A stretch of DNA of 64,000 nucleotides from an uncultured Candidatus Saccharibacteria bacterium (GTDB lineage Bacteria; Patescibacteriota; Dojkabacteria; SC72). The position numbers were made by a program, and so were the translations under genes. The stretch lies in assembly GCA_964480345.1 (NCBI GenBank), contig CAYZNW010000002.1, positions 64,524 to 128,523 of the forward strand. The letters run 5' to 3'. Shown here piece by piece: positions 28,667-43,507 of the stretch. Positions within the stretch are counted from its first letter, which is position 1. Each line of letters starts with the position of its first letter. The notes beneath the pieces were generated by a model. The model was not told the DNA's origin, did no database searches, and worked only from the letters and a program-made list of their open reading frames with translations.

Positions 28667-29767
28667 GTGTATAATATATTACATATGAATGATTTACGCA
28701 AAAAAGATATCGTAGATTTACAGAAAGATATTGAAAGTACTATCAAAAATTTAGATCTTGCACAGAAGCAGGAAAGATTAATACAGCTTCAAAATCAAAC
28801 ATTAGACAAAAACTTTTGGTCTAACAATGAGAAAGCTCAACAAACTATGTCTGAAATAACATATATTCAAGAAGAGATAAGTACAGCCGAAGAGTTGAAA
28901 AATGATATTGATACTCTAGTACAGATATTTAATTCAATAAAAAATGAGACAGAACAGAACTTACTAATAGAAGATTATGAATTACTAAGAAAGAAATTGG
29001 ATAAATTTGAATTAAGAAAATTTCTCTCAGGAGAATATGATAGTGCTTATGCAATACTTTCAATACACTCGGGACAAGGAGGAACAGAATCTAATGACTG
29101 GGTAGAGATGCTTTTCAGAATGTACACAATGTATTTTGACAAACAGGGATGGAGATATACTGTATCTGAAATGAGTAAAGGTAATGAAGCTGGAATATCT
29201 ACTGTAACTCTTCTAATTAATCAACCACTCGCTTTTGGAATTCTAAAGAGAGAGCACGGTACTCACAGGCTAGTACGAATATCTCCTTTTAATGCTCAAG
29301 GTTTAAGACAAACAACTTTTGCTGGAGTGGAAGTACTTCCTCAATTAAAAGAAGAAAACAATTTAGAGATACCAGAGAAAGATATTCTATTCAAAGCAGT
29401 AAAATCAGGAGGGCCAGGAGGGCAGAATGTTAACAAGACATCCTCTGCAGTTCAGATAACTCACATACCAACAAATATTACAGTTCAATCATCAAACGAG
29501 AGAAGCCAAGCTCAAAACAGAGAGAATGCTATGAACATACTTAAGGCAAAACTTTGGAGAATAAAAGAGGAACAAAGACTTACTAAAATTTCTGATATTA
29601 AAGGAGAGTACAAAATAGCCGGCTGGGGGAATCAGATTAGAAACTACATACTACATCCATATAAACTGATTAAAGATTTACGAACAGGAGTCGAATTAAG
29701 TAATCCTGAAAGTGTATTAGATGGAAATATAGATGAACTAGTTGAAGCAGAAATCAGAATGAAGTAA
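28667..29767 (+). CDS. prfB: Peptide chain release factor 2
   Basis: GGQ motif (SGGPGGQNVNKTSSAV) and the RF2-specific SPF tripeptide (RISPFNAQG). Reads through in a single frame, with no programmed frameshift. Confidence 0.9.
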   Translation: MYNILHMNDLRKKDIVDLQKDIESTIKNLDLAQKQERLIQLQNQTLDKNFWSNNEKAQQTMSEITYIQEEISTAEELKNDIDTLVQIFNSIKNETEQNLLIEDYELLRKKLDKFELRKFLSGEYDSAYAILSIHSGQGGTESNDWVEMLFRMYTMYFDKQGWRYTVSEMSKGNEAGISTVTLLINQPLAFGILKREHGTHRLVRISPFNAQGLRQTTFAGVEVLPQLKEENNLEIPEKDILFKAVKSGGPGGQNVNKTSSAVQITHIPTNITVQSSNERSQAQNRENAMNILKAKLWRIKEEQRLTKISDIKGEYKIAGWGNQIRNYILHPYKLIKDLRTGVELSNPESVLDGNIDELVEAEIRMK

Positions 29768-29806
29768 TATATACAATGTAATGTAATTAAACTGTCTTTA
29801 ACTGCC

Positions 29807-30775
29807 ATGTTACTGTTCCAAGATGTAACAAAAAAATATTCACAAGATATAACAGCACTAGATGAGGTTACTTTTAATATTGATAAAGGAGAGTTCTCTT
29901 TCTTAGTAGGACCATCAGGTGCAGGTAAAACAACCTTAATGAAACTTCTCATAAGAGAAGAAGTTCCAACTTCAGGAAGCATTTTTTTTGAAGATGTGGA
30001 GATTAATAACTTACCGAAACCTTTAATCCCTCAGTATAGGCAAAGGCTGGGAATAGTCTTTCAAGATATTAAACTTCTACAAACCAAGACATTGGAAGAG
30101 AATATCGCTTTCTCTTTAGAAATATTAGGTAAAGCCGAAAAAGAAATTAAAGAGACTACTGATTACTTACTAAATCTAGTTAAACTAGAGAACAGAAAGA
30201 CACTCTTTCCTGTGCAGCTCTCTGGAGGAGAACAGCAAAGAGGAGCTATTGCTAGAGCATTAGCAAGTAATCCTGACCTATTAGTTGCAGATGAACCTAC
30301 AGGCAACTTAGATCCAGACAATTCTTTCCAAATTCTAGATATATTAAAAAATATTAACAAAAATGGAACAACCGTAATGGTCATTAGTCACGATAAAGAG
30401 ATTGTAGATTTTATGAAAACTAGAGTCATAAGGATGGAAAATGGAAAAATAGTCTCTGACAACAAGGGTGATTACAATACAATCAAAAAACCAAAGAAAG
30501 TAAATATACATATTAAGACAGATAAAGAGGAAGAAAAGAAGAAAGAAGAAGATACAAATCAAAAGGTAGAGGAGAAAGAGATTAAGATAGAGAAAGATAT
30601 AGAAGACTTAGATAAAAAAGTGCTAAAGAAATTAAGTAAAGCAAAAATAACAAATATGGAGATGATATTGAAATTAACAGAGGATGATTTAAAAAACATA
30701 GAATTTAGCAAAGAAGATCAATCTATTTTAGAAGATTTCGTTCGAGAGTATTTAAATAAATCGAAAAACAATTAA
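29807..30775 (+). CDS. ftsE: Cell division ATP-binding protein FtsE with about 95 aa K/E-rich C-terminal extension
   Basis: Walker A GPSGAGKTT, ABC signature LSGGEQQRGAIARAL, Walker B LLVADEP. Canonical FtsE ends near residue 225; here a charged tail continues to 322. Confidence 0.9.
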   Translation: MLLFQDVTKKYSQDITALDEVTFNIDKGEFSFLVGPSGAGKTTLMKLLIREEVPTSGSIFFEDVEINNLPKPLIPQYRQRLGIVFQDIKLLQTKTLEENIAFSLEILGKAEKEIKETTDYLLNLVKLENRKTLFPVQLSGGEQQRGAIARALASNPDLLVADEPTGNLDPDNSFQILDILKNINKNGTTVMVISHDKEIVDFMKTRVIRMENGKIVSDNKGDYNTIKKPKKVNIHIKTDKEEEKKKEEDTNQKVEEKEIKIEKDIEDLDKKVLKKLSKAKITNMEMILKLTEDDLKNIEFSKEDQSILEDFVREYLNKSKNN

Positions 30776-30777
30776 TT

Positions 30778-31698
30778 ATGGCAAACAAACTTATTAACAA
30801 TGCAAAAAATAATATTAAAAGAAACAAGTGGTTATCAATATCAACTGTCTTAGTAACCTCTATTGTCATAGCCATATCATCTTTCTTCATAAGTGCAGCT
30901 ATCATTGCACAAAAAGGAGTGCAGTATTATGAGAAGAAAGCACAAGTAATAGTATTTTTCAAAAAAGACACAGAAGAATCATACATTATGCTTTTCAAAG
31001 ATAAGATATATGATTCTAATTTAATAGAGAGTATAGATTACATCTCACAAGAAGAAGCGCTAAATATATACAAAAATGATTTTGCAGAAAATCCAGACCT
31101 ACTATCTACTGTAACAGCTGATTCGTTACCACCAAGTTTAGAAATCAGAGCTAAATCAGTACAATCTTTACTTAAAGTAATTGAAAATATAAATCAGGAG
31201 AAAAAGACAAATGCAAATATAGATGAGGTGATTTACTTCAAAGATGTAGTAGAGAATCTTAAATCTCTAGCAAGAATAATCAATATTAGCTCGGTAATAT
31301 TAATAGCTTCATTAGTAATAATTACATTTTTCTTGATAAGAATAGCCATAGGATTCAATATTAACTCACATAAAGAAGAGATTAGAATCATGCACTTAGT
31401 TGGAGGTTCTGATAATTTCATAAAACTTCCATTTATATTAGAGGGACTATTCTACGGATTAATTGGAGGAGTAATAGGAGCTTCAATCCTGATAATTCCT
31501 TGGTATGTCATCATCTATTACACACAAGGAACAGATTTCGCTCTCTTCATCAACAGTTTCCTAAAAAGCTTTGGTTTAGACTTCCTACAGAGATTTAATC
31601 TTCTTTTCATTTTACTATATTATATTATTCATATAATTGTAGGAGGATTAGTTGGAATCATAAGTAGTCTTAGTGCAATTAAAAAATATTTAGAATAA
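30778..31698 (+). CDS. ftsX: Cell division permease FtsX
   Basis: N-terminal TM helix, large extracytoplasmic loop, three C-terminal TM helices; directly follows ftsE. Confidence 0.8.
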   Translation: MANKLINNAKNNIKRNKWLSISTVLVTSIVIAISSFFISAAIIAQKGVQYYEKKAQVIVFFKKDTEESYIMLFKDKIYDSNLIESIDYISQEEALNIYKNDFAENPDLLSTVTADSLPPSLEIRAKSVQSLLKVIENINQEKKTNANIDEVIYFKDVVENLKSLARIINISSVILIASLVIITFFLIRIAIGFNINSHKEEIRIMHLVGGSDNFIKLPFILEGLFYGLIGGVIGASILIIPWYVIIYYTQGTDFALFINSFLKSFGLDFLQRFNLLFILLYYIIHIIVGGLVGIISSLSAIKKYLE

Positions 31699-31700
31699 AA

Positions 31701-33014
31701 ATGAAGAAAAGGATAATAATTACAATTTTTGTTCTTCTTGTCTCTACTTTGGCCTTAGTCGTACTCGCATCTTCAAAGCAAGAGCCTGTATCAGCTCAAA
31801 CATCATGCCCACCAAATATAGATCCCAATTCATATGAATGTGTTGAGTATCTTAGAAAGCAATCCGAAATTTTAAGGAAACAGCAAGAGAGTATTCAAAG
31901 ACAATTAAAGAATGAAGAGTATCAACAGTTATCATTACAAGAGAAAATTAACTATATAAAGGATCAGATCATACAATCTGAAAAAGTCATACAATCACTA
32001 CAAGTAGAGATAGCTGCAAATGATGTAGAAATTAAACTTCTAGAGAAAGACCTTACGGAAAAAGAAGATACAATATCATTACTTAAACAAGAAATAGGGA
32101 TTTTAGAAGAAACAGTAAATGAACGAATTACAGAATCATACAAATACTCTTTCCTTGGAACTTTCGAAATATTATTAGATATTAACAATATCTCTTCTGC
32201 ATTAAGAAAAGCTAAATATTTAGCATCAACAAGAGAGAAAGATAAACAGTACTTAGAAAACTACTCAGTTAAAGTAACAGAATTAAAGGAAGAGGAGAAA
32301 GAGTTAGCTGAGAACAAGGCTAAAATTCAGATAAAGAGAAATAGTATTGAAGAAGAGAAGATTAAGCTTGCAGAGAATCAAATAGTATTAGATGGACAGA
32401 AAAAAGAAAGAGAATCTCTATTAGCACAATCTAAAGCAAAGCAGGCACAATTGTTAGCAGAAATGGTACAGAAAAAAGATCAACAGGCAGCTTTAGATGC
32501 AAAGATATTAGCCTACATTAATGCACATATGGGAGAGATGATTAAGGAGGGACCTGTACCAAGAGGTGGATTGATAGGATATCTAGATAAAGGTGTTGGA
32601 ACATGCGGATTCTCTACTGGACCTCACTTACATTTTGGAATTAGTAAATCTACCATGAGCCAAGGGTTCTACTCTAATGTTCCAATATGGAGCAATGGGT
32701 ATTTAACATGGCAGGGACCCGGTACTGCATATGACTGGGATGGTACAACTCCTCCTCAACTTGCAACCTCTGGCTCATATTTAATGCCATTAACTGGCTC
32801 GGTAGTAGTCACACAGAATGTTCACGAAAGAGATCCAAGAAACTATCACGCTGTAGACTTAGTCAGAGCAGATTACTACTCTACAGGAGGAGCAGCTGTA
32901 GTAGCAGCAGCTTCAGGTACTGTCTATAGAAGGCAGGAGTGTGGTCAAGGATATGTTGTAATAGACCACAATAACGGATATAGGACAATATACTTACACT
33001 TGAAGTTACAATAA
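31701..33014 (+). CDS. Coiled-coil M23 (LytM-type) peptidase-domain protein, EnvC/PcsB-like partner of FtsEX; M23 motifs in permuted order
   Basis: Signal peptide, then about 250 aa coiled coil. TGPHLHFG occurs first, then YHAVDL (HxxxD), then GYVVIDHNNGYRTIYLHL at the very C-terminus. In canonical M23 domains the order is HxxxD ... xYxHL ... GPHLHFE. Confidence 0.7.
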   Translation: MKKRIIITIFVLLVSTLALVVLASSKQEPVSAQTSCPPNIDPNSYECVEYLRKQSEILRKQQESIQRQLKNEEYQQLSLQEKINYIKDQIIQSEKVIQSLQVEIAANDVEIKLLEKDLTEKEDTISLLKQEIGILEETVNERITESYKYSFLGTFEILLDINNISSALRKAKYLASTREKDKQYLENYSVKVTELKEEEKELAENKAKIQIKRNSIEEEKIKLAENQIVLDGQKKERESLLAQSKAKQAQLLAEMVQKKDQQAALDAKILAYINAHMGEMIKEGPVPRGGLIGYLDKGVGTCGFSTGPHLHFGISKSTMSQGFYSNVPIWSNGYLTWQGPGTAYDWDGTTPPQLATSGSYLMPLTGSVVVTQNVHERDPRNYHAVDLVRADYYSTGGAAVVAAASGTVYRRQECGQGYVVIDHNNGYRTIYLHLKLQ

Positions 33015-33098
33015 TTCTCTTAATCATATCTATGTCCTTTATTCTTTTAGAATATTTTGCTAAACTTGTCTAACTATTAAATTTACATAAATAACTTA

Positions 33099-33941
33099 AT
33101 GAGCAAATCTAAGAAAGCTAAAAACTACCCAAAGAAGGAATCTGCTCCTAAAAAGTCTTTAAAAACTGAAGTTAAGACTGTTGAGAAGAAGATTGCTAAA
33201 AAGATAGAGGTTAAGAAACCAGATCTATCAGGATTAAAGCAGTACAATTACAAACCTGTATTAAAAATATTAGGTTTAATAATTGTAATCATAGCAACAA
33301 TTGCATTAGTAGACCTTGCAGTACAGTTCTTCAACAATTCATATAGCATCGCTGTTGTTAATAACTCTAGAATACCTAGAAATAAATGGACAAAAGAGAT
33401 AGAGAAAATCTATGGAAAAGCTATGTCAGCAAAAATGATTGATGATGAGATCATTAAGTTAGAAGCTAAGAAAGCTAATGTAGAAGTTACTGAAAAAGAT
33501 ATAGAAGATGAGTTAAATACATATAGAGAGAGGATGGGAGGAGAAGAGAAGTTACAAAGTACATTACTAGCAAATAACTTCACAGTAGAGCAATTAAAGG
33601 AACAGATAAAAACTGACTTGATGTTAAGAAAGATTTTGGAACCATCTCTTCAATATACAGAGGATGATATTAAGAACTTCTTCAATCAGTACAGTGATGT
33701 AATCTTCCCAACTGAGGCAGCAGCTTTAGAAGAGGGAGAGAAATTGGATTATGAGAAGTACAAGGAGCAAACTACTGATTGGTATAAGAGACAGTTGGTT
33801 GAGTCTAATATGAGCGATTGGTTAAATACTAAAAGAAGTGAATACAATATTAGAGATAATGCAAAGAATCAACCAAAATATGGATTCTTAACTACAACTA
33901 TTGATTTGATCAATACAGTAGTAGATAAGATTAAGAAGTAA
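33099..33941 (+). CDS. Hypothetical membrane-anchored protein, possibly SurA/PpiD N-domain-like chaperone
   Basis: Lys-rich N-terminus, one TM helix, then a helical domain with weak similarity to SurA_N-type chaperone modules. No PPIase motif. Confidence 0.35.
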   Translation: MSKSKKAKNYPKKESAPKKSLKTEVKTVEKKIAKKIEVKKPDLSGLKQYNYKPVLKILGLIIVIIATIALVDLAVQFFNNSYSIAVVNNSRIPRNKWTKEIEKIYGKAMSAKMIDDEIIKLEAKKANVEVTEKDIEDELNTYRERMGGEEKLQSTLLANNFTVEQLKEQIKTDLMLRKILEPSLQYTEDDIKNFFNQYSDVIFPTEAAALEEGEKLDYEKYKEQTTDWYKRQLVESNMSDWLNTKRSEYNIRDNAKNQPKYGFLTTTIDLINTVVDKIKK

Positions 33942-34906: not shown

Positions 34907-35149
34907 ATGAGTATATTATATTGGATCATACTAGGGGTTGTAGCTGGATGGCTAGCAACCAAAATCATGAAGACATCAACAGGATTAATAGGAAATTTAG
35001 TCCTAGGTGTAGTTGGTGCTTTCATCGGAGGATTAATCATGAACCTAATCGGTAAAGTAGGAGTAACAGGATTCAATCCTTACAGCTTACTCGTAGCAAC
35101 CGTTGGTGCTGTTGTATTAATCTACATCGGCAAATTAATAAGGAAGTAA
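34907..35149 (+). CDS. GlsB/YeaQ/YmgE-family small membrane protein
   Basis: 80 aa with two to three TM helices and the glycine-zipper pattern (LGVVAGWLA...GVVGAFIGGLI) typical of this family. Confidence 0.75.
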   Translation: MSILYWIILGVVAGWLATKIMKTSTGLIGNLVLGVVGAFIGGLIMNLIGKVGVTGFNPYSLLVATVGAVVLIYIGKLIRK

Positions 35150-35157
35150 GTATTTAA

Positions 35158-35232
35158 CTGGCACCTCAGGTGGAAATCACTCTAAAAAGAGCAGATTATC
35201 ATACCCTCACAGGTGCCAGTTTTAGTTTTTTC
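35158..35232 (+). terminator. Long stem-loop (9-bp stem CTGGCACCT/AGGTGCCAG, about 44-nt loop) followed by a T-tract
   Basis: Perfect inverted repeat at 35158-35166 and 35211-35219, followed by TTTTAGTTTTTT. Lies between convergent genes. The loop is unusually long for a simple terminator. Confidence 0.35.
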
Positions 35233-35512
35233 TCATCTCTTCTCTTTTAAGTTCGTTGTAATGATCTAAAGCTGTAGTATCTTCATCAGGATTCAGCTTC
35301 AAAGCAAGCAAAAACCTTGGAAAGCTGTCCATTAAATAGGAACAATAAGAAGACTCAGAATTAAAAAATATAGTAACAACATCTGTCGCTACAACATCTT
35401 CTCTACCCACTATCTTAGAGAAAAATTCCTTCCGAAATGGTTTACACTTCTTCTTATCGTCAGGAAAAAACTGATTAAGAGCCTCATTGGCTACATCTTC
35501 AGTAACAAACAT
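35222..35512 (-). CDS. Hypothetical protein
   Basis: 96 aa ORF with no recognisable motif; retained only because it fills an otherwise empty gap with reasonable codon usage. Confidence 0.3.
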   Translation of the reverse strand: MFVTEDVANEALNQFFPDDKKKCKPFRKEFFSKIVGREDVVATDVVTIFFNSESSYCSYLMDSFPRFLLALKLNPDEDTTALDHYNELKREEMRKN

Positions 35513-35639: not shown

Positions 35640-37781
35640 ATGGAAAACAAGAAGAAATTTATACACATATCAATCCTAACTTTAATAGCCGTATCACTAG
35701 TATCAGCCATATCCATACTTCTTTACAACAACATAAAACAGAATAATCTAGAAAGAAAAACTCCTACAGACATACAAATAGCTAATACTACTCCAACTAC
35801 TACACAAATATATTGGAAAGCATCAAAAGATATACTGTACACACTCTCTTACAAACAGAAACAAAGTACCCTACCGTACAAAGATATGAAGAATTCAGAT
35901 ATCTTTTACGATATTCTCTCTTCAAAAAATGTTTACAGAGTAAATATAGATAATTTAACTCCCAACACAGAGTATATTTTCCGAATACAGATAAAAGATA
36001 ACACATGGTCGGAGTATTCATTCAAAACAAAAGATGTAAATAATGAAATACATATTCCAAATATAGTAACAGGGAAATCTACTCCTAAAAATTTTCTTCT
36101 TGTAAAAACAGATAGCGATACTTTAATGCTAGATACCCAATATCATGGAACATATGCTTTTGATTCTATGAATAAAGAGTACAGTATTGTTAACTATGCT
36201 GATTACACTCCTCAATTAGAATTAAACAAGAAATTTTGGAGTATGATAAATGGTACTGTTTATGCACAAGCTGGAGCTAACTGCAAAACTAATATAACTG
36301 TAAACTCCACAAGATATCCTCCAACTAAAGTAACTGTAGAACAGGTCCTCAGAAAGTGGGTACAGAACTGTGAAGGAGGCTCATACGGTCAGCAGTGCTA
36401 TGAAGATGTATATTGTAAATCATTAGAAGCTGGTATAAGTCCTGCATTTATGATGACGATCTGGTCAAATGAATCAGGAGGAAGCAACTATGCAGGGTTT
36501 AATTTAGATATTGAAGATTTTGGAATACATGGACTCGCCTCTGTTCCTCCAAAGGATTTCACTGCACAGATAGAGTGGTTTCTAAAGACTATAGCTACAG
36601 AAAAATATATATCTTCCTGCCCTGATGGAGAAGACAAATTAATACTGTGGGCTGCTAAATTCTGGACAGGTAAATGTGATAATGAGCAATCAATATTAAA
36701 AGGAAGAGAGTATATTAGCAGAATTAGTAATGTACATAGTTGGTATACTCAAAAACCTTTAGCATGGCCTTTCACTATAGAAAAAGTCGCTAATCCTTGT
36801 GATTACTCCTCAGCAATAACAAACTCCCAGTATAATAACTGTGATTCTACTTCGACCCCATCTCCTACACCTTCTCCTACTCCTACGCCATCTCCGTCAC
36901 CTACACCAAATCCAACGCCATCACCTGTACCAACTCCAGTACCTTCTCCAACACCTACGCCTCCTACTCCACCTACTCCAGGTCCAATAGATGGTAGTAG
37001 AGATGAGATGATTGTTACAGATAAAGATAGATACTGTTTAGATGCTGATGGATGCCAATGCCTATATGATATGAATAACGGCAATGCAGGATACAGAATG
37101 AACATAGACTTTGGATATACATGTACTCCTGATAGAAAATCAGTAAAAACTGAAGCCGTGTGTTGTGAAAACAACTCTAATAGATCATTAAAAATGCCGT
37201 ATGATTGCAACGGAGAAATTAGAAAAGATATAGATAACAACTCATGCTTCACAGAAACAATCGCATATAACTTTGATGCAGGAATCAATTTCATAACAGT
37301 TGCTGAAATAGTAGACTATTCAAAAACAGCAATAACTACTGCGAAAGGAATAATCCAGTATTCTAACAACAAAATAATAGCTGTAGGTAAATTCACAAAT
37401 GGCTCATGGATAGACATCATTAAATATGAAAATGGAGCCATCAATGGAAAAGACTTTACTTTAGAACCAGGAGAAACATATCTATTCATCTCATCAGAAA
37501 AGTTCTCCATCCAATCTTTAGGACGAAAAGTTCAAAATCAAAAAGACATATCATCTCTGACAGGATGGAATCTCATATCTGCGTCTACTCTGATTCAAAA
37601 TAACAGTACATCTACACAAATACTCGAACAAAACAGTACTTACAATATAGTGCAAGTCGCACTATGGAAAAAAGATAGTGCAAAATTCATATATACACTC
37701 AAAGATTCAGAGAACCAAATATATGGAGATGGAATAAATGTATTAACATCAGACTCTATATTTATAAAATTAGATAAATAA
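35640..37781 (+). CDS. Large secreted multidomain protein: FN3-like N-terminal domains, GH73-like (N-acetylglucosaminidase) region, Pro/Thr linker, one 6-Cys module, conserved C-terminal beta domain (paralog 1)
   Basis: N-terminal TM/signal; FN3-like strands (TQIYWKAS...YTLSYKQK...NLTPNTEYIFRIQ). IWSNESGGSNYAGFN...FGIHG resembles the GH73 ESGWG...N.FGIKG motif. PT linker TPSPTPSPTPTPSPSPTPNPTPSPVPTPVPSPTPTPPTPPTPGP. Cys module DRYCLDADGCQCLYD...GYTCTPDRK...VCCENN...YDCNG. C-terminal 200 aa align with the 39124 protein. Confidence 0.6.
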   Translation: MENKKKFIHISILTLIAVSLVSAISILLYNNIKQNNLERKTPTDIQIANTTPTTTQIYWKASKDILYTLSYKQKQSTLPYKDMKNSDIFYDILSSKNVYRVNIDNLTPNTEYIFRIQIKDNTWSEYSFKTKDVNNEIHIPNIVTGKSTPKNFLLVKTDSDTLMLDTQYHGTYAFDSMNKEYSIVNYADYTPQLELNKKFWSMINGTVYAQAGANCKTNITVNSTRYPPTKVTVEQVLRKWVQNCEGGSYGQQCYEDVYCKSLEAGISPAFMMTIWSNESGGSNYAGFNLDIEDFGIHGLASVPPKDFTAQIEWFLKTIATEKYISSCPDGEDKLILWAAKFWTGKCDNEQSILKGREYISRISNVHSWYTQKPLAWPFTIEKVANPCDYSSAITNSQYNNCDSTSTPSPTPSPTPTPSPSPTPNPTPSPVPTPVPSPTPTPPTPPTPGPIDGSRDEMIVTDKDRYCLDADGCQCLYDMNNGNAGYRMNIDFGYTCTPDRKSVKTEAVCCENNSNRSLKMPYDCNGEIRKDIDNNSCFTETIAYNFDAGINFITVAEIVDYSKTAITTAKGIIQYSNNKIIAVGKFTNGSWIDIIKYENGAINGKDFTLEPGETYLFISSEKFSIQSLGRKVQNQKDISSLTGWNLISASTLIQNNSTSTQILEQNSTYNIVQVALWKKDSAKFIYTLKDSENQIYGDGINVLTSDSIFIKLDK

Positions 37782-37783
37782 AT

Positions 37784-39061
37784 ATGGATACATACAACAA
37801 CTATGAGAAAGAAGATCAAGTTGCCATAGAATTAGAAGATGCAAAGTACCAAGAACAGCTAGGAGCGAGATTAACCCTTTCTCAACTAGCATCTATTTCT
37901 GAAAAGATAACAGCAGGAAACGAAATAAACAAAGAAGAATCTAAAGAGAATCTTAAAGAAGAAGCATCAAGAGAAATCTTTGAACAACAGACAAGAAATC
38001 TTATATACTTCACTCAAATATACCAACGAGCAGGACAGCTAGATAGAGATCCTACAACAAGAGATTTTCTAAATACATTTCCATCTAAAGGCATAGACCA
38101 TATAGCCGATCTTCATAATATTGCAAAACAGAAAGAAGTCAAAAGCCAGTCTACTCCAGAACAGAAAGCAGAGAAATTTTGGGAAGTATGGAAAGATTCT
38201 CAAATATTCCACCCTATAAAAAAGCAATTTACATACTCTGCACCAACAAAAAAAATTAAATTGGCAGAGAGCACAATCCTCTCACCAACTGAAGTAAAAA
38301 ACTCCTGGAATAACAACACATTAATGAGAGAGAAACTAGACAGAATACTTTACAATGCTCATAATCCGAAGAAATTAAAAGATATAGATGTTCATAAATA
38401 CTTAATCATCAACGATGTTAACATTATTTCAAATATCACTTTAGAAAACAGTAGATTACAGATAGTTCCATTAATTCATGGAATACATATACCTATCAAT
38501 TATCCAGAGGAACCTATGGAAATAATCTATTACAAAACTGGTACAGTACCAAACAGAGCAGACAATTTAAAAACATCACAAAAATTACAGCTATTTCTTT
38601 CAACACTCTGTACCAAAATGACAATAGATTCTCTCATAGATAAAGGTATAGTCACTTATACCGCTTGGGATTTATTAGATTCATCAAAAAAAGAATTCCC
38701 ACAATTTTCTAAACATAACATGTCATTTTCAAATCCATTTCTTAATAAGATGAATATAGAAGAGATATTAGAGCACTCCTTAGGGGACAGAAGCATACGA
38801 AATTCAGTAGTTACAACTATGTATAACCCTATTACAAACAGAAAACTGACATTAAGACCTAAAGATATCTTCCTTGGAGACAGAAAAGATATCCTCTGCG
38901 CATTATCAAAAATAGAAGAGATAACAAAATACTATATAGAGCATAAACAAGAATTGAAAAAGCTATCAAAATCGAAAGTAAAACATTACAATATGCCAAA
39001 GTTCACAACAGATAAAGAGCAGAGTGTTGAACCAGTACAATTAACATTAGATCTGTTTTAA
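37784..39061 (+). CDS. Hypothetical cytoplasmic protein (no signal peptide, no recognisable motif) embedded between the two paralogs
   Basis: 425 aa, hydrophilic, long uninterrupted frame starting 3 nt after the upstream stop. Confidence 0.45.
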   Translation: MDTYNNYEKEDQVAIELEDAKYQEQLGARLTLSQLASISEKITAGNEINKEESKENLKEEASREIFEQQTRNLIYFTQIYQRAGQLDRDPTTRDFLNTFPSKGIDHIADLHNIAKQKEVKSQSTPEQKAEKFWEVWKDSQIFHPIKKQFTYSAPTKKIKLAESTILSPTEVKNSWNNNTLMREKLDRILYNAHNPKKLKDIDVHKYLIINDVNIISNITLENSRLQIVPLIHGIHIPINYPEEPMEIIYYKTGTVPNRADNLKTSQKLQLFLSTLCTKMTIDSLIDKGIVTYTAWDLLDSSKKEFPQFSKHNMSFSNPFLNKMNIEEILEHSLGDRSIRNSVVTTMYNPITNRKLTLRPKDIFLGDRKDILCALSKIEEITKYYIEHKQELKKLSKSKVKHYNMPKFTTDKEQSVEPVQLTLDLF

Positions 39062-39123
39062 CATCTACAAGTTCTGAATAAAATATATTAGAATTATATA
39101 AGCTAATAAAATAATTAAAACAT

Positions 39124-41130
39124 ATGAAAAAAAATCTAAAAAAAGTGTGGCCTCGCTTAGGTATTGCTATGTTACTAACAATAGCTTTGTCATTACTGGT
39201 TCCTGATACTCTCAAAAAGTTAAAAACTATGGAAGAGAAGCCTATGCAAATTGTTGTTACTAACATATCGACTGTAGATGCAAAAATATTTTGGCAAACA
39301 GATACCAAATCTTCATACAAAGTTCATTACAAAGACTCTACTAACTCAGGAGTCTTCAAACAAGCAGATAGCATCACAGTATATGGAGATGAATCAAATA
39401 ATAGACCAATAACATATTCGGTAAAGATTGATAAATTAGAACCAAATACTAAATATGATTTTAGAATCTCCTCTTCAAATAAGATATGGGAGGAGAAATA
39501 TACATTTGAAACAGATCAAATTGGAGAGAAAGTAGATTTGCCAAAGACAATAACAGGTAAGGGAGATATTGAATCTCTCTATCTCCTTGATTCTGATGGG
39601 AGTAGATATATGTTTGATACTCAATATCACGGTACTTGGGCTTTTGATGCTAAGGAGAAGGAGTTTACGATAAAGAAATACGCTACATACTCACACAAAG
39701 ATAGCAAATTAACTTTACTAAAGAACAAACTCATTGGTAAATTGCTTGCTCATGAAGATTACAAGACAAAAGACGGTGTAAGAGATGGAATATTAATAAA
39801 TGATGCTAATCCAATAAGGCACTGTGCAGACGCAGATGGTTGTGTATGTATTTTCGGAGATCAGAATTCCACTGATAGAAGAGATATAAATATGGGGGAA
39901 TCATGCTCTAAAGATAGGACAGTGGCTGATTCTATGAGATGTTGTAGATCAGCAGATGGTACAACTGTAAAATGGATGAATGCTAAAGAGTGTTTAAGAG
40001 TTCCAACAAATACCATTAATTTGTATGAGGAACAGAGTGTATGTATAGAGAAGACTCCTACACCTATCCCTACTCCTCGTCCTACCCCTCCATCAAGCGA
40101 GCCTACAGTAATTCCAGGGTTTGATCCAAAGGTATATGCTAAGTTCCCATCAGATGGCTATGTATATGATGCGGAAGATATCTTCTTTAGATTAATTACG
40201 GGAGATTACAAAAACAAAGATAATGATGTTGACACGAATCTAGTAAATGAAGCATGGAGTTGGAGAAGGGTTTGCAAAGATGTTGATGGATGTATCTGTC
40301 AGTATCCAGATGGTTCAACTATCAGAGTAGTTGTAGGAGAGACCTGTATTAAGGATAGGCAGAAGGAAGACACCATGGAGTGTTGTTTGTATGAGAGCAG
40401 AACAAAGAGATCATATATTACAGTTAAAGAGTGTATGCAAAAGAGTGGTTTTGAAATAATAGAGCAATCTACAAAGGAGAAATGTGAGTCAGAGTATGTG
40501 TGTTGTTCACTAAATGGTAATTTGAAATATAAATTAGATGTGAATTGTCAAAAAGCAGGAGGTGTTTCAATATCTGGAGTAACTTCACAGAACTGTAAGG
40601 CTCAAACTAAAGAGATAGTGATATCTAAAGGTGTAAACTTCATCGAAGCATACTATATCCTTTCAGCTAATACCCCTATCAGAACAGCAAAGGAATTAAT
40701 CGTATTCTCTCAGAATAAAGTAACTGCTGTTGGAATATTTAGAAATGATAAATGGGAGAAGTTAGTAGTTCAAGAGAACGGTACTATTAGTGGAGAGGAC
40801 TTCCCTCTTCTACCTAATGAATCGTATTTGATAATTGCTACAGAAGAGGTAAAAATACCTACCTCAGTTGTTGTTTCGCAAAAGAGTATTAATCTAGCAG
40901 ATTATACTGGCTGGAACCTGTTTGCATCTTCATCAGTTACTTCATCTTCAGCAAGAACATCTGAGCAGATATTTAATGATGCTAAATACAATAATGTCAG
41001 GCAGATTGCACAGTGGAGCTCAGACTCCTCTAGTTTTAAATACGCTGTTAGAGATATAGATAACAGTCTTTACGGGGACAAGCTAACAATAACTGATCAA
41101 CAAGGAGTATTCATTAAAACAACGAAATAA
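39124..41130 (+). CDS. Large secreted multidomain protein: FN3-like N-terminus, two 6-Cys modules, short Pro/Thr linker, conserved C-terminal beta domain (paralog 2)
   Basis: Signal/TM. IFWQTDTKSSYKVHY...LEPNTKYDFRI (FN3-like). FDTQYHGTWAFD block shared with paralog 1. Cys modules IRHCADADGCVCIFGD...GESCSKDRT...RCCRSADG...KEC and RRVCKDVDGCICQYPDG...GETCIKDRQ...ECCLYES...KEC. Linker TPTPIPTPRPTPP. C-terminal VNFIEAYYILSAN...GWNLFASSS...FIKTTK parallels paralog 1. Confidence 0.6.
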   Translation: MKKNLKKVWPRLGIAMLLTIALSLLVPDTLKKLKTMEEKPMQIVVTNISTVDAKIFWQTDTKSSYKVHYKDSTNSGVFKQADSITVYGDESNNRPITYSVKIDKLEPNTKYDFRISSSNKIWEEKYTFETDQIGEKVDLPKTITGKGDIESLYLLDSDGSRYMFDTQYHGTWAFDAKEKEFTIKKYATYSHKDSKLTLLKNKLIGKLLAHEDYKTKDGVRDGILINDANPIRHCADADGCVCIFGDQNSTDRRDINMGESCSKDRTVADSMRCCRSADGTTVKWMNAKECLRVPTNTINLYEEQSVCIEKTPTPIPTPRPTPPSSEPTVIPGFDPKVYAKFPSDGYVYDAEDIFFRLITGDYKNKDNDVDTNLVNEAWSWRRVCKDVDGCICQYPDGSTIRVVVGETCIKDRQKEDTMECCLYESRTKRSYITVKECMQKSGFEIIEQSTKEKCESEYVCCSLNGNLKYKLDVNCQKAGGVSISGVTSQNCKAQTKEIVISKGVNFIEAYYILSANTPIRTAKELIVFSQNKVTAVGIFRNDKWEKLVVQENGTISGEDFPLLPNESYLIIATEEVKIPTSVVVSQKSINLADYTGWNLFASSSVTSSSARTSEQIFNDAKYNNVRQIAQWSSDSSSFKYAVRDIDNSLYGDKLTITDQQGVFIKTTK

Positions 41131-41155
41131 AAAGAACTAGATAAGGAGTTACTTC

Positions 41156-42811
41156 TTATCTAGCATTCTTTAGAAGCTTCATTAAAAGATCACCCTCTTC
41201 CTGAGTAGCAAATCTTGGCTGTAGATTACTTCCCATATATATAGGAGTAATTTTAGTCTGAACATATTTCCCATCATAGAAATAGTTAGACAAAACAAGA
41301 CCCTGTCTTGTACCTATCCATATTGACTGATCAAAGAAAAGATTTCCTAAACCGTAGAAAATCATCCCACCGTTGTATGACTCATATGTCTGAGGTTGGT
41401 GAGCTTGAGTCCCAACCACTATATTAGCCCCTAAATCAATTGCTTTTCTAAACACGCCTTTTTGATCTGGATTTCCAATAGGTTTGTAACAGATTGGATA
41501 GATCACATCAGAAGCAGGATAACAGTAACACTCTTGAAACTGAAAAGAGACGGTTACAACATCTGCTTTCTCTTTAGCTTCTTTAATATCCTTTTCTAAT
41601 TTCTCTACTGAGTACCAATTACCTCCTGCAGTTTTCTCTCCAGCTAAAGCGTATGTATGATTATATATAGAATCGTAATAGTTATAGCCAATAAAAGCTA
41701 ATTTTGTACCATTTACCTCTTTGTACAGTATCTTACTTGCATCCTCCTTATTTAAACCACCACCAAAATACTCCATGCCAAGAGCCTTATACATCTCAAT
41801 GCTTCGAGTGTTATTTGAACTACCAAAATCATTATTATGATTACCTGTTAGCTCTACGATATCTACTCCACTCCTTTTCAACACATCAATATGTTCATCT
41901 TTAGTACAAAATCTCATTCCATTACTCGCAGTACAATTACTTACAAAAGAAGCTTCATTGGAAACATGAGTCAAATCAGCATCTCCAAGAAAATCCCCTA
42001 AAACATCAGCAGGATATGTTGTACTTTTAACAGCTACCATCTTACTCAAAAGAGCCCGACTAATTGCTACAACTCCACCCATGTTTACCTTTGCTAACTT
42101 TGTTTCATCTATACTCTTCTCATACATATTTAGATTCTTTTTAATCACATCGAGTATAAATTCATCAGAAGAATCAATATTTGAAGCGTAGAATTTTAAT
42201 GAAACAGCTCCCTCAAAATCATCTAAGAAGTATTTCTCATCCAAAGTTAATATTTTTAAATCAAATCCAATATCTTTGAACTCCAATAAAGCTATCTTCT
42301 CAGTATCCTCTTTTAATTTTGTAATTAATGATTCGGCAGATTCTACAACTTCTGCTTCTATACCGTAAGAACTTTGTAAGAAATCTTTATACAAAGAGTT
42401 AAGAATATATACATGTTTGTTCTTTAATTCATCTAATTTAATAGAATCAGTTAATGAATATGTATGAACAACAGGAATCAAATCCAGTGATGCTAATACC
42501 TTTGCTTTTTCCTTCTCTTCAGTAGAGATAATAATCCCTTTATTGTTATCTACAAAATCAAATCTTTTTTTATCTTTATATTTAATAGGATCAAGAGAAT
42601 CGTAAATCTCTTTTTTAAATCCCTCTGCTACACTGCTGTCAAAAGAGACATCGTAAGTATCATACTTGACAGAGTATCTTCTAAATCCAAGTAGATCAGT
42701 AAAAATAACAGTAGGATTTCTTTTCTCAAAAATCCAAAGATAAAGGAAAGATAGTATGAGAGAGTAAAGAAGAATCTTAAACACTCTGCCAAATGATATT
42801 TTGTTTTTCAT
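41156..42811 (-). CDS. CapA/PgsA-family (poly-gamma-glutamate capsule synthesis-type) metallophosphoesterase-fold protein with N-terminal TM anchor and extra N-terminal domain
   Basis: ADLTHVSNEAS...GVDIVELTGNHNNDFG parallels the CapA ADLTxVNLE...GxDVVSLANNHxxDYG motifs. Has about 250 extra N-terminal residues. Confidence 0.65.
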   Translation of the reverse strand: MKNKISFGRVFKILLYSLILSFLYLWIFEKRNPTVIFTDLLGFRRYSVKYDTYDVSFDSSVAEGFKKEIYDSLDPIKYKDKKRFDFVDNNKGIIISTEEKEKAKVLASLDLIPVVHTYSLTDSIKLDELKNKHVYILNSLYKDFLQSSYGIEAEVVESAESLITKLKEDTEKIALLEFKDIGFDLKILTLDEKYFLDDFEGAVSLKFYASNIDSSDEFILDVIKKNLNMYEKSIDETKLAKVNMGGVVAISRALLSKMVAVKSTTYPADVLGDFLGDADLTHVSNEASFVSNCTASNGMRFCTKDEHIDVLKRSGVDIVELTGNHNNDFGSSNNTRSIEMYKALGMEYFGGGLNKEDASKILYKEVNGTKLAFIGYNYYDSIYNHTYALAGEKTAGGNWYSVEKLEKDIKEAKEKADVVTVSFQFQECYCYPASDVIYPICYKPIGNPDQKGVFRKAIDLGANIVVGTQAHQPQTYESYNGGMIFYGLGNLFFDQSIWIGTRQGLVLSNYFYDGKYVQTKITPIYMGSNLQPRFATQEEGDLLMKLLKNAR

Positions 42812-42873
42812 GCTATCATAGTAACATGAAATTAGTAGTTAAGCTATGCTAACTGTACACTATAGGCCTAATA

Positions 42874-42882
42874 TGGTATAAT
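42874..42882 (+). promoter_or_regulatory. Extended -10 promoter element TGGTATAAT upstream of the GH73-like gene
   Basis: TGnTATAAT at 42874-42882. Its position (5 nt before the track ORF start at 42887) implies translation starts at the downstream ATG 42920. Confidence 0.4.
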
Positions 42883-42919
42883 GTAGTTGTATTGCTTAAT
42901 TAATTTTAAAAGCAAACAT

Positions 42920-43507
42920 ATGAAATTCTTGCTCTTAAAAAGTAAAAGATTACTAGCAATTGCAACTGGAATTATATTTGCTGGAGTACTTGTTGTTACC
43001 TTTTCTGAGAAAATGACTATGGAGCTTGCAGAAGCTCATCAAACAGAGAATATTACTGAGTCCGTTCTTTCAGTAACAGAGGTAAATGTTAATGAAGATA
43101 TGAATATTGCTGAAGTTGAGAAAGAACCAGGTTATATTCCTGATGCTGAGAAGGTAGAAAGAGTACGAGTATATCTTGCAAACAGAAAATCTCCACTTGC
43201 TGATTATGCATTAGAATTTGTAAAAGCTTCTGATTTCTACGGTATTGACTACAGATTAGTAGCTTCGATATCTATTATGGAGTCAGGTGGTGGTAAACAC
43301 TGCTTTAAGCCTTACAATGCATGGGGATGGGGTAAAAAAGGTTTTGCTAACTGGACAGATGGTATCTGGACAGTATCAAAAGGTTTGGCTAAGTATTACC
43401 AAAATGGTCTTACTACACCAAAACTAATTAGTAAATTCTACTGTCCTTCTAATGCAGTAAACTGGGCTAACAAAGTTCAGTTTGTAATGAATGAAATTGC
43501 TAAGTAA
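42920..43507 (+). CDS. Small secreted GH73-like (FlgJ/AcmA-type N-acetylglucosaminidase) domain protein
   Basis: Signal/TM at N-terminus (MKFLLLKSKRLLAIATGIIFAGVLVV). SISIMESGGGKHCFKPYNAWGWGKKG matches the glucosaminidase ESGWG...N.FGIKG catalytic region. Start chosen at 42920 because of the promoter position. Confidence 0.45.
   Translation: MKFLLLKSKRLLAIATGIIFAGVLVVTFSEKMTMELAEAHQTENITESVLSVTEVNVNEDMNIAEVEKEPGYIPDAEKVERVRVYLANRKSPLADYALEFVKASDFYGIDYRLVASISIMESGGGKHCFKPYNAWGWGKKGFANWTDGIWTVSKGLAKYYQNGLTTPKLISKFYCPSNAVNWANKVQFVMNEIAK

Follow-up and report, generated by a model that had tools for sequence, protein, structure and literature searches.

A pair of paralogous, membrane-anchored surface proteins from an uncultured Dojkabacteria bacterium represents a probable lineage-specific variant of the modular cell-wall hydrolase

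The GH73 N-acetylglucosaminidases (PF01832), represented by Ecd09610 of C. difficile (8yxk) and AtlE of S. aureus (4pi7), are mostly autolysins (PMC9405191). Their fusion partners include LysM, SH3b or choline-binding repeats, and modular Gram-positive autolysins likewise have a catalytic domain linked to wall-binding repeats that serve as targeting modules. Division hydrolases of the M23/PcsB/EnvC type are activated by FtsEX, and a catalytically null paralog is a pattern seen among known hydrolase regulators. Here, we describe a locus within a window of 64,000 nucleotides (the whole stretch of DNA analysed) that encodes two related membrane-anchored surface proteins, paralog 1 (par1) and paralog 2 (par2), of an uncultured, ultrasmall CPR bacterium (Dojkabacteria). 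The paralogs combine known parts, namely an FN3 stalk and, in par1 only, a GH73-type cell-wall-cutting enzyme, with small Cys-rich units and a C-terminal domain without a match to described families. We regard the locus as a variant, specific to this lineage, on the theme of the modular cell-wall hydrolase and no new kind of system.

The open reading frames given in a first-pass annotation of this DNA were all present as stated; the paralogs, which it had called giant, measure 713 aa (par1, 35640..37781) and 668 aa (par2, 39124..41130; all genes and domains lie on the forward strand unless noted otherwise). Their relationship, proposed there, is borne out by three separate aligned blocks, comprising par1 16-192 and par2 14-192 at the N-terminus (32% identity, E 1e-28, BLASTP), par1 464-713 and par2 382-668 (29% identity, E 2e-33), and par1 451-518 and par2 217-283, the latter covering the first Cys module of par2 (34% identity, E 5e-10, BLASTP). 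This similarity is far above chance and independent of the low-complexity linkers. The architecture is common to 36 aligned family sequences and runs from a helix through an FN3 domain, a small beta domain, an exchangeable cassette and a Pro/Thr linker to Cys-rich units and a bipartite C-terminal domain. AF2 models of the two proteins had a mean pLDDT of 79.5 (par1) and 79.1 (par2). Par2 has the par1 scaffold, but a Cys module stands where par1 carries its GH73 cassette.

Secretion and topology were judged by hydropathy, using the best 19-aa Kyte-Doolittle window. A single hydrophobic helix was found at the N-terminus, and none elsewhere, in 35 of the 36 family members. In par1 it spans aa ~10-28 (35667..35723; Kyte-Doolittle 2.61 at residue 10; AF2 helix 2-40), consistent with a signal-anchor or an uncleaved signal peptide, and in par2 aa ~12-30 (39157..39213; 1.98 at residue 12; AF2 helix 2-37). 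The CapA-like and small GH73-like proteins encoded nearby also have one such helix, and the 425-aa protein encoded between the paralogs has none; we therefore predict an extracytoplasmic location with an N-terminal anchor for par1, par2 and these first two neighbours, in agreement with the secretion first proposed for the paralogs. The FN3-like assignment of the following domain likewise held, with FN3 / Pur_ac_phosph_N matches above Pfam cut-offs in both par1 (FN3 / purple-acid-phosphatase-N-like, aa 41-130, 35760..36029) and par2 (aa 39-130, 39238..39513; PF16656 47.1 bits, PF00041 28 bits), and Foldseek matched the par2 domain to purple acid phosphatase N-domains. In par1 a second small domain (aa ~135-190, 36042..36209), all-beta in the AF2 model, carries the DTQxHGTxAFD block noted in the first-pass annotation; this block (DTQYHGTxAFD) is invariant across a 10-sequence alignment, with D165, T166, Q167, H169, G170, T171, A173, F174 and D175 of par1 as the invariant columns.

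The all-helical cassette of par1 (aa 196-402, 36225..36845) corresponds to the region annotated as GH73-like. It remained below every Pfam threshold, its profile had no match among PDB sequences, and sequence searches returned nothing beyond weak matches to SLT, obtained for 4 of 17 homologs; the GH73 call therefore rests on the predicted structure and a short motif alignment. The predicted fold agrees with the assignment, and the motif E-[ST]-G ... F-G-[IM]-[HK]-G is in register with GH73, sharing both the catalytic Glu motif and its spacing to F-G-[IM]-[HK]-G (single-target tests gave E 0.005 and 3.5e-4). Glu278 (36471-36473) is a candidate catalytic residue; no counterpart of the second catalytic residue of GH73 enzymes was identified. 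Together with eight cassette Cys, Glu278 is invariant over 17 divergent sequences. The cassette thus resembles GH73 enzymes in motif, in predicted extracytoplasmic location and in modular fusion to non-catalytic domains, but differs from them in being too divergent for PF01832, in its eight invariant Cys, and in its fusion partners, which are an N-terminal anchor, an FN3 stalk and undescribed C-terminal modules.

The cassette is followed by a Pro/Thr/Ser linker (aa 403-450, 36846..36989). As first noted, Pro/Thr linkers occur in both proteins, and they are predicted to be disordered (pLDDT <50 at par1 403-443 and par2 309-329); the par1 linker is also the source of spurious low-complexity database matches. 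What had been described as a 6-Cys module contains eight Cys arranged as two 4-Cys units, in par1 unit A (aa 464-498, 37029..37133; Cys 466, 472, 474, 495) and unit B (aa 507-537, 37158..37250; Cys 508, 509, 523, 536). The copy count of one module in par1 and two in par2 was correct. The first par2 module (A1 aa 232-264 and B1 aa 271-309, 39817..40050; domain E 4.3e-9 with the family profile) occupies the place of the GH73 cassette of par1, and the second (A2 aa 382-411, B2 418-456, B3 458-493, 40267..40602; pLDDT 85-92) contains an extra unit B. Among 36 sequences, all four Cys of unit B are invariant, as are three of the four in unit A, the fourth being at least 90% conserved. Copy numbers vary from 0 to 6 for unit A and from 0 to 3 for unit B, with no match in 92 unrelated controls, and Cys accounts for ~10% of residues in the modules vs 0.78% in 48 other window proteins.

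Even, invariant Cys counts suggest that the units are disulfide-bonded. With ~30-40 aa, four Cys, tandem repetition and a predicted extracellular location, they resemble EGF-like, thrombospondin type 3 and Myxococcus Cys-rich repeats, but their spacing, C-x5-C-x-C-x(14-24)-C, is unlike that of any of these. Unit A also has a D-x-D-G motif resembling that of calcium-binding repeats; since G-W-N-T-Y replaces it in one sub-clade, the motif is not essential. The earlier failure to place the module in a known family was upheld, with no match to Pfam or NCBIfam models at E up to 1 or among PDB sequences. The shared C-terminal domain (par1 aa 539-713, 37254..37778; par2 aa 494-668, 40603..41127, pLDDT about 85-94) is beta-rich, as stated previously, with a size of about 175 aa in place of the ~200 aa reported, and weak evidence suggests that it is an internal duplication. 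It had no Pfam, NCBIfam or PDB-sequence match. Neither the Cys units nor the C-terminal domain had a structural neighbour, which makes their binding role a conjecture.

In profile searches, no fewer than 569 clusters (50% identity) carried the C-terminal domain at their extreme C-terminus; they also share the N-terminal FN3 domain and differ in their middles. This wider superfamily is restricted to CPR bacteria, and the par1/par2 family is specific to Dojkabacteria. We identified 28 true homologs of par1, which is near-universal at the syntenic locus across about 20 genomes, and eight homolog clusters of par2 in addition to the window's own. In the tree, par2 sequences form a single clade nested within the par1 radiation, and par2 is confined to one sub-clade.

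The gene between the paralogs (37784..39061) encodes a 425-aa protein that had been described as cytoplasmic and featureless. It indeed lacks a hydrophobic segment, but at the family level it has PD-(D/E)xK (RecB/Cas4-type) relatives, and of six members, three match PDDEXK_1 (E 0.0075) and two match the phrog_69 exonuclease (E 5e-7). Its orthologs carry DEI...IIDYKTGK...QLFL, in keeping with the pattern D...(D/E)-Y-K-T-G...Q-L-x-x-(L/Y), and match the models for PDDEXK_1, phrog_69 and the AddA/RecB nuclease domain, whereas the window copy (HGI...IIYYKTG) is degenerate, having lost both acidic residues, and matches no model; the long N-terminal half also sets the family apart, being without assignment. 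The protein is a probably inactive PD-(D/E)xK homolog unrelated to the surface module. Its gene occupies this position in some lineages only; other lineages lack it, have it ahead of par1 or show a third paralog in its place. The surface and cell-wall module first proposed is supported by the predicted anchoring and by GH73 folds or motifs, but the arrangement of two paralogs around an unknown gene is not conserved as a unit.

Downstream, a hairpin with a 12-bp stem (41137..41163), terminator-like without a clean T-run, separates par2 from the convergent CapA-like gene (41156..42811, reverse strand). Its product, identified correctly at first pass, has a PGA_cap metallophosphoesterase fold (PF09587, 136.8 bits, E 1.2e-39, residues 250-495) and an N-terminal membrane helix (Kyte-Doolittle 2.10 at residue 10). 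It resembles CapA in both respects, but unlike in PGA_cap systems its constant partner is a GH73-like protein; because the locus showed no genes for a poly-gamma-glutamate synthetase of the CapB or CapC kind, a capsule role is doubtful. The partner is a small membrane-anchored hydrolase of 195 aa (42920..43507), whose orthologs begin at the ATG at 42920, making this the correct start and the mechanical ORF start at 42887 wrong. Although its Pfam Glucosaminidase score is 13.6 bits vs a cut-off of 30.2, a 4-ortholog profile matched 8yxk (the Ecd09610 GH73 domain) with E 3.6e-6 and AtlE with E 0.53, supporting the GH73-like call, and the Glu of its ESGGG motif, the candidate catalytic residue (43280-43282), is invariant.

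About 20 loci share the order par1-(par2)-x-PGA_cap-smallGH73-FkbM-CofD-CarD-IleRS, and those extending far enough also have M23 and PrsA upstream; FtsE, FtsX and M23 were confirmed in the window. The conserved core of par1, CapA-like protein and small GH73 sits inside a block whose synteny reaches from FtsE/FtsX/M23 to CofD/CarD/IleRS. As the whole neighbourhood is syntenic, housekeeping genes included, adjacency alone is no proof of functional coupling. This setting is no less compatible with remodelling of the bacterium's own wall than with an attack on a different cell, and we favour, with a probability of roughly 55%, an anchored par1 GH73 enzyme, a non-catalytic par2 and a CapA-like/small GH73 set that most probably serve to remodel or split the cell's own wall.

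Alternatively, the C-terminal domain and Cys units could bind another cell's envelope, with the par1 GH73 digesting its peptidoglycan locally for attachment or nutrient extraction and par2 as the matching adhesin. We regard this host-directed role as possible, if less probable. The hypervariable middles and sheer size of the superfamily are typical of interaction proteins, its restriction to CPR bacteria is suggestive given that all cultivated members are described as episymbionts in 10.1101/2024.11.25.624915, the models place the enzyme on a long stalk with the conserved domain at the distal end, and some loci (L016, L017, L020, L021) show additional par1-like genes in a different genomic setting. 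However, par1 is near-universal and usually single-copy at the locus (two par1-type copies in L007-L009) and lies in a housekeeping block beside FtsEX-M23, a pattern typical of autolysins; GH73 enzymes are mostly autolysins (PMC9405191), and Dojkabacteria have no known host. A chromosomal insertion of a lysis cassette of mobile or phage origin, suggested by a prophage endolysin as best structural match and by the nuclease-fold gene between par1 and par2, is effectively refuted by the lack of matches among 50,697 phage records or in IMG/VR contigs, by flat GC content across the region and by chromosomal synteny in about 20 genomes.

Two further readings concern the modules themselves. The Cys units might be metal-binding knuckles (e.g. 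for Zn, one ion per unit) or redox-active sites in an anaerobic, reducing habitat, as their exactly four Cys with C-x5-C-x-C...C spacing, the origin of relatives from anaerobic-digester-type MAGs and the lack of a disulfide-forming enzyme among those window ORFs that were scanned would allow. We consider this unlikely, given the predicted extracytoplasmic location of the units, and given that the eight invariant Cys of the GH73 cassette fit disulfide stapling of the whole ectodomain, that the AF2 models show them, with no cofactor present, as small beta structures of high confidence (pLDDT 82-92), and that they lack conserved His or Asp residues of the kind that partner Cys in zinc sites. Less likely still is a structural coat, a surface layer or fibril self-assembled from FN3 stalks and C-terminal domains with the cassette as an inactive or vestigial wall-binding module; many paralogs do share the same ends, par2 dispenses with the enzyme, and the possible C-terminal duplication could support symmetric contacts, but the invariance of the catalytic-motif Glu and its surrounding motif in 17 divergent sequences argues for retained catalysis, and the single N-terminal anchor comes with no evidence of assembly motifs.

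Under the favoured reading of own-wall remodelling, par1 would be a Cys-stapled GH73-type N-acetylglucosaminidase with its catalytic Glu retained, most likely cutting the glycan strands of peptidoglycan, where stalk and linker would determine how far from the membrane it acts, with the Cys units and C-terminal domain as a putative targeting or binding end. It would resemble modular Gram-positive autolysins in joining a predicted wall hydrolase to accessory targeting modules, but these are unrelated to known wall-binding repeats, and anchoring is through the N-terminal helix. Par2 arose by one duplication of a par1-type gene, with a further A-B Cys module swapped in for the enzyme; with only the stalk and putative binding modules kept, it is a non-catalytic version and, similar to known hydrolase regulators, may act as a competitor, regulator, scaffold or adhesin. 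The locus also lies near an FtsE-FtsX-coiled-coil-M23 set, in which it resembles autolysins that work alongside FtsEX-activated division hydrolases. Together with its two anchored neighbours, the CapA-like protein and the small GH73, par1 forms a conserved cell-envelope set downstream of FtsE/FtsX/M23, whose most probable job would be the remodelling or splitting of the bacterium's own wall.

The two surface proteins of this locus, par1 (35640-37781, + strand, a 713-aa ORF) and par2 (39124-41130, + strand, 668 aa), share three independently aligning stretches, with E values of 1e-28, 2e-33 and 5e-10, bearing out the paralogy proposed in the first-pass annotation, although at these lengths neither is the "giant" protein it described. 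The FN3-like N-terminal domains that had been noted were recovered in both proteins as FN3 / Pur_ac_phosph_N at approximately aa 40-130; these were the sole Pfam matches, reaching the gathering score and having the FN3 beta-sandwich fold. The shared block first read as FDTQYHGTxAFD is likewise genuine, DTQxHGTxAFD being invariant across a 10-sequence alignment. NCBIfam and PDB-sequence searches of both proteins returned nothing beyond noise from the Pro/Thr linkers, and the linker was also the source of par1 matches to TRRAP, SslE, TonB and about 90 unrelated proteins. Matches to Med15_C, dCTP-deaminase and LA_0364 were discarded as sub-threshold noise.

AlphaFold2 (AF2) models with mean pLDDT of 79.5 (par1) and 79.1 (par2) predicted a plan common to both proteins: a helix at the N-terminus, the FN3 domain and a further small beta domain, linkers modeled as disordered, Cys units that are small and rich in beta structure, and a C-terminal domain likewise rich in beta structure. 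An all-helical cassette (192-370) was exclusive to par1. Foldseek searches of the full-length models against the PDB yielded FN3 / purple-acid-phosphatase N-domain matches only, the multidomain queries having swamped the remaining domains, and the lack of a structural match for either the Cys units or the C-terminal domain with these queries is at best a weak negative. By hydropathy, 35 of the 36 family members carry a single N-terminal hydrophobic segment and none elsewhere; one such segment was also found in the CapA-like neighbor and in the small GH73-like protein.

The cassette of par1 is predicted to adopt a lysozyme-like fold that is superimposable on a solved GH73 domain. Glu278, within W-S-N-E-S-G-G, and the eight cassette cysteines were invariant in 17 sequences; this residue occupies the general-acid position of the E-[ST]-G motif and aligns with H-E-T-G of the C. 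difficile Ecd09610 GH73 domain (8yxk). The cassette profile ran in register with the 8yxk fragment over G-[IV]-x-P-A-F...I-W-S-N-E-S-G-G...D-F-G-I-H-G (hhalign E 0.005; hmmsearch 3.5e-4 against this single target), and aligned over the same Glu with the profile of the small protein (E 0.045). Neither par1 nor its 17 homologs matched PF01832 at E<=1, weak SLT matches appeared in Pfam searches for 4/17 homologs, and the cassette profile found zero matches among PDB sequences.

The small protein (195 aa) is encoded at 42920-43507 (+), with its start placed at the ATG at 42920 because orthologs begin MKFLLLKSK. A four-sequence profile of this protein and three syntenic orthologs matched 8yxk_A at E 3.6e-6, placing E-S-G-G-G on E-T-G-N-G, with the candidate catalytic Glu invariant among the orthologs; a comparison with AtlE was weak (E 0.53), and with PF01832 the protein scored 13.6 bits, short of the 30.2-bit cut-off. 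A 201-aa protein at locus L010 was considered as a further ortholog and rejected. The earlier GH73-like calls thus hold for both the par1 region and the small gene, and since neither reaches the Pfam threshold, we call them GH73-like, on the basis of fold and motif, and not demonstrated family members.

Cysteine makes up 2.2% of residues in par1 (16) and 3.0% in par2 (20), compared to 0.78% in 48 other window proteins, and reaches a local density of about 10% inside the modules. The repeated pattern seen at first pass is real, but a 36-member alignment and unit-level HMMs resolved what had been read as one 6-Cys module into two separate 4-Cys units: unit A, R-x-C-x-D-x-D-G-C-x-C-[ILF]-[YWF]...G-x-x-C-x-x-[DN], of about 30-35 aa, and unit B, CC-x(10-18)-C-x(10-18)-C. 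In this alignment all four unit-B cysteines and three of the four in unit A were invariant, the remaining one being at least 90% conserved. The order is A-B in par1 and A-B, linker, A-B-B in par2, whereas retrieved homologs carry 0-6 copies of A (six in P0142, four in P0137) and 0-3 of B. Given this copy-number variation and the absence of both units from 92 unrelated control proteins (0/92 with the unit-level HMMs), A and B behave as independently repeatable modules, each with an even Cys count. AF2 rendered them as small, beta-rich bodies (pLDDT ~82-92). Consistent with the initial failure to place the module in any known family, searches of Pfam (E<=1), NCBIfam (E<=0.1) and PDB sequences, which included the multi-copy proteins P0137 and P0142, gave no match of either unit to a curated profile, whether EGF, TSP3, the Myxococcus repeat or any DUF. 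Beyond units A and B, the family seems to reshuffle Cys-rich spacers of various types. Three par1-type homologs (P0016, P0022 and P0035) have a ~55-aa insert, K-C-G-T-R-A-T...W-P...L-C...W-x-C...C, between units A and B, and P0183 carries tandem I-C-T-P-x-x-C-E...C...C repeats.

When a profile spanning the Cys units and the C-terminal domain was run against 1.84 billion representatives, 569 matched at E<=1e-3, including 122 at 1e-10 or better and 36 at 1e-30 or better. The Cys units were covered in about 45 of the top matches, and the remainder were restricted to profile positions ~80-254, corresponding to the extreme C-terminus of proteins mostly 900-1300 aa long. Of nine such domain-only proteins sampled, eight had the same N-terminal FN3, the ninth being a fragment that lacks its N-terminus. 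Because the C-terminal domain and the FN3 are thus common to proteins with other middles, the superfamily has a plan of constant ends and a swappable middle. Members with a source name were all Dojkabacteria, bar one older "Parcubacteria group" label. In distant members the C-terminal domain is plainly readable as two ~85-aa repeats of the pattern G-W-N-L-[IV]...T-A-x-x-L...[IV]-x-x-[YW]-x-x-G-x-[WFY]...G-x-[DN]-F-x-[IL]-x-P-G-x-G-Y-F-[IV]; among close family members the alignment of one half with the other is weak yet in register (E 0.0097). A broad alignment of this bipartite domain found no match in Pfam or PDB sequences. Some distant members (P0170, P0172 and P0183) continue past the domain into a short two-Cys tail, C-K-S-[IVL]-[IL]-W-x-P-x-G...C-G, and another distant sub-branch ends in G-G-G-x-x-F-[KT]-P; the window proteins have neither tail.

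To place the locus, we inspected the contigs of homologs, used the cassette alignment to scan ~185,000 species genomes, which yielded 24 loci, all in CPR MAGs, and annotated all loci from both sources with local profiles. The order that recurs among them is M23(coiled-coil)-PrsA-...-(425-aa gene)-par1-(425-aa gene)-(par2)-x-PGA_cap(-)-smallGH73-FkbM-CofD-CarD-IleRS, where parentheses around gene names mark genes present in some lineages only. The genome of the window itself belongs to Candidatus Dojkabacteria (CPR/Patescibacteria), and its nearest named homologs are all Dojkabacteria. Par1 is near-universal among the loci, L004 having lost it, and par2 is confined to the clade of the window (window, L001-L010 and L012-L013). 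A neighbor-joining tree of the shared domains, computed without support values, placed all par2 sequences in one clade within the par1 radiation, which is consistent with one duplication event, after which an A-B module took the place of the GH73 cassette; the first Cys module of par2 sits at the alignment position of the par1 cassette. GC content is flat over the window (~0.31-0.36), with no island sign along its profile, and searches of phage records and IMG/VR contigs turned up no relatives.

The paralog-unknown-paralog order is not consistently kept across relatives, as the 425-aa gene (37784-39061, +, starting 2 nt past par1) occurs in some lineages only, and in L007-L009 its place between par1 and par2 is taken by a third paralog, 912 aa long and of par1 type (2989-5727 in L007). 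Besides a GH73-like cassette, this paralog contains a long insert; the same clade has a 243-aa ORF overlapping the end of the PGA_cap gene. Where present, the 425-aa gene is invariably followed, as the next gene downstream, by a family member, either par2 (window, L001, L004) or par1 (L024, L026, L033).

Orthologs of the 425-aa protein were collected from syntenic loci, a word-index search having returned the window copy alone despite the existence of a 41%-identical ortholog. The six aligned sequences display D-E-I-x-I-P...I-I-D-Y-K-T-G-K...K-L-Q-L-F-L-M, which is the motif signature of RecB/Cas4-type PD-(D/E)xK nucleases. Model matches comprised PDDEXK_1 in 3/6 members (E 0.0075), DUF2800 in 1/6, phrog_69 "exonuclease" in 2/6 (E 5e-7) and AddA at E 0.02; Gasdermin-B matches over 60 residues (E about 0.01-0.03) were discarded as chance. 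From the matches of its orthologs, the protein is assigned by sequence homology to the PD-(D/E)xK superfamily. The catalytic D...(D/E)-x-K motif is kept as D-E-I...D-Y-K in L004 (2292-3515), L024 (6055-7341), L026 (935-2218) and L033 (6095-7354), and reads H-G-I...Y-Y-K in the window copy and H-S-L...I-Y-R in that of L001. With both acidic residues replaced and no model match for either copy, these two are probably inactive nucleases. The earlier description of a cytoplasmic protein without recognizable features therefore stands in its first half, since no hydrophobic segment was detected, but not in its second; the gene product is cytoplasmic and lies outside the surface module.

The CapA-like metallophosphoesterase reported as a neighbor is secure (551-aa ORF, 41156-42811, - strand, convergent with par2), scoring 136.8 bits with PF09587, for which the cut-off is 27 (E 1.2e-39). 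No Pfam families of CapB/CapC-type synthetases were present among the window neighbors or in orthologous loci. In P0079, an unrelated protein found via the Pro/Thr linker, PGA_cap occurs together with YkuD (L,D-transpeptidase) and PG_binding_1 domains, a hint, relevant to this neighbor, that PGA_cap domains can serve in connection with peptidoglycan instead of capsule synthesis. A hairpin with a 12-bp stem (41137-41163) lies between the convergent genes, which are 25 nt apart; it overlaps the CapA-like stop region and is possibly a bidirectional terminator; its position is occupied in most relatives by an HSP20 gene that is missing from the window. A promoter scan was uninformative (31 sites found versus 37 expected).

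The genes upstream of par1 encode RF, FtsE, FtsX, a coiled-coil M23, a PrsA/SurA-like protein, HPF and Transgly_assoc. The block at 28667-33941, about 2.6 kb from par1, comprises RF, FtsE (ABC_tran), FtsX (FtsX_ECD+FtsX), the EnvC/PcsB-like M23 peptidase and the PrsA/SurA-like protein, and is a divisome wall-hydrolase activation set. M23 and PrsA are also syntenic in many relatives. Shortly upstream of par1 lie an 80-aa Transgly_assoc membrane protein of the GlsB/YeaQ type (34907-35149) and a 96-aa ORF that matched no family (35222-35512, - strand). On the other side, a CofD-family gene (PF01933, 44200-45300, - strand) shows constant synteny with the locus; this family includes YvcK-type proteins, tied to cell-wall and morphology functions in Firmicutes.

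Our preferred reading, to which we assign a probability of roughly 0.55, is that par1 is a tethered GH73-type glucosaminidase, that par2 is its enzyme-less derivative, and that par1 belongs to an envelope-remodeling set acting most likely on the cell's own wall. Judged from sequence and models, par1 would be membrane-tethered and Cys-stapled, with an FN3/linker stalk presenting the enzyme and the distal Cys units and C-terminal domain serving as putative targeting elements; par1, the CapA-like protein and the small GH73-like protein would form the conserved set. Own-wall action is favored by the near-universal presence of par1 and its housekeeping synteny beside FtsEX-M23. These same features weigh against a system directed at a host, a less probable alternative that draws on how large and variable the superfamily is and on the episymbiotic life of cultivated CPR bacteria. 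A bolder extension, which we regard as unlikely, holds that the two Cys units, A and B, and the bipartite C-terminal domain represent novel extracellular folds that, with FN3, make up a Dojkabacteria-specific modular toolkit (at least 569 clusters) for episymbiosis in a CPR lineage without a cultured representative. The C-terminal domain would then recognize the envelope of another cell, and the middles, GH73 here and others elsewhere, would deliver different activities to it.

Par1 resembles a modular Gram-positive autolysin in combining a catalytic domain with targeting modules, but differs in its N-terminal anchor and FN3 stalk and in its highly divergent 8-Cys GH73 cassette. Par1 and par2 differ further in the two undescribed 4-Cys units and in the undescribed bipartite C-terminal domain, found in at least 569 clusters from one CPR class. 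We found no description of this family in the literature. Its biochemical core, a modular peptidoglycan hydrolase, is of a well-known kind; what is new are the domain families and the lineage biology, not a principle.

Dojkabacteria are uncultured, and to our knowledge nothing is known about how they build their envelope, divide or attach. A tethered GH73-like enzyme with an obvious candidate active-site residue (E278), a natural enzyme-less paralog and two undescribed module types offer a concrete, testable set in this setting. The upside rests on the C-terminal domain and Cys units turning out to be host-recognition modules, if that is true, and the superfamily of constant ends and variable middles could mark surface-protein diversification in the Dojkabacteria class.
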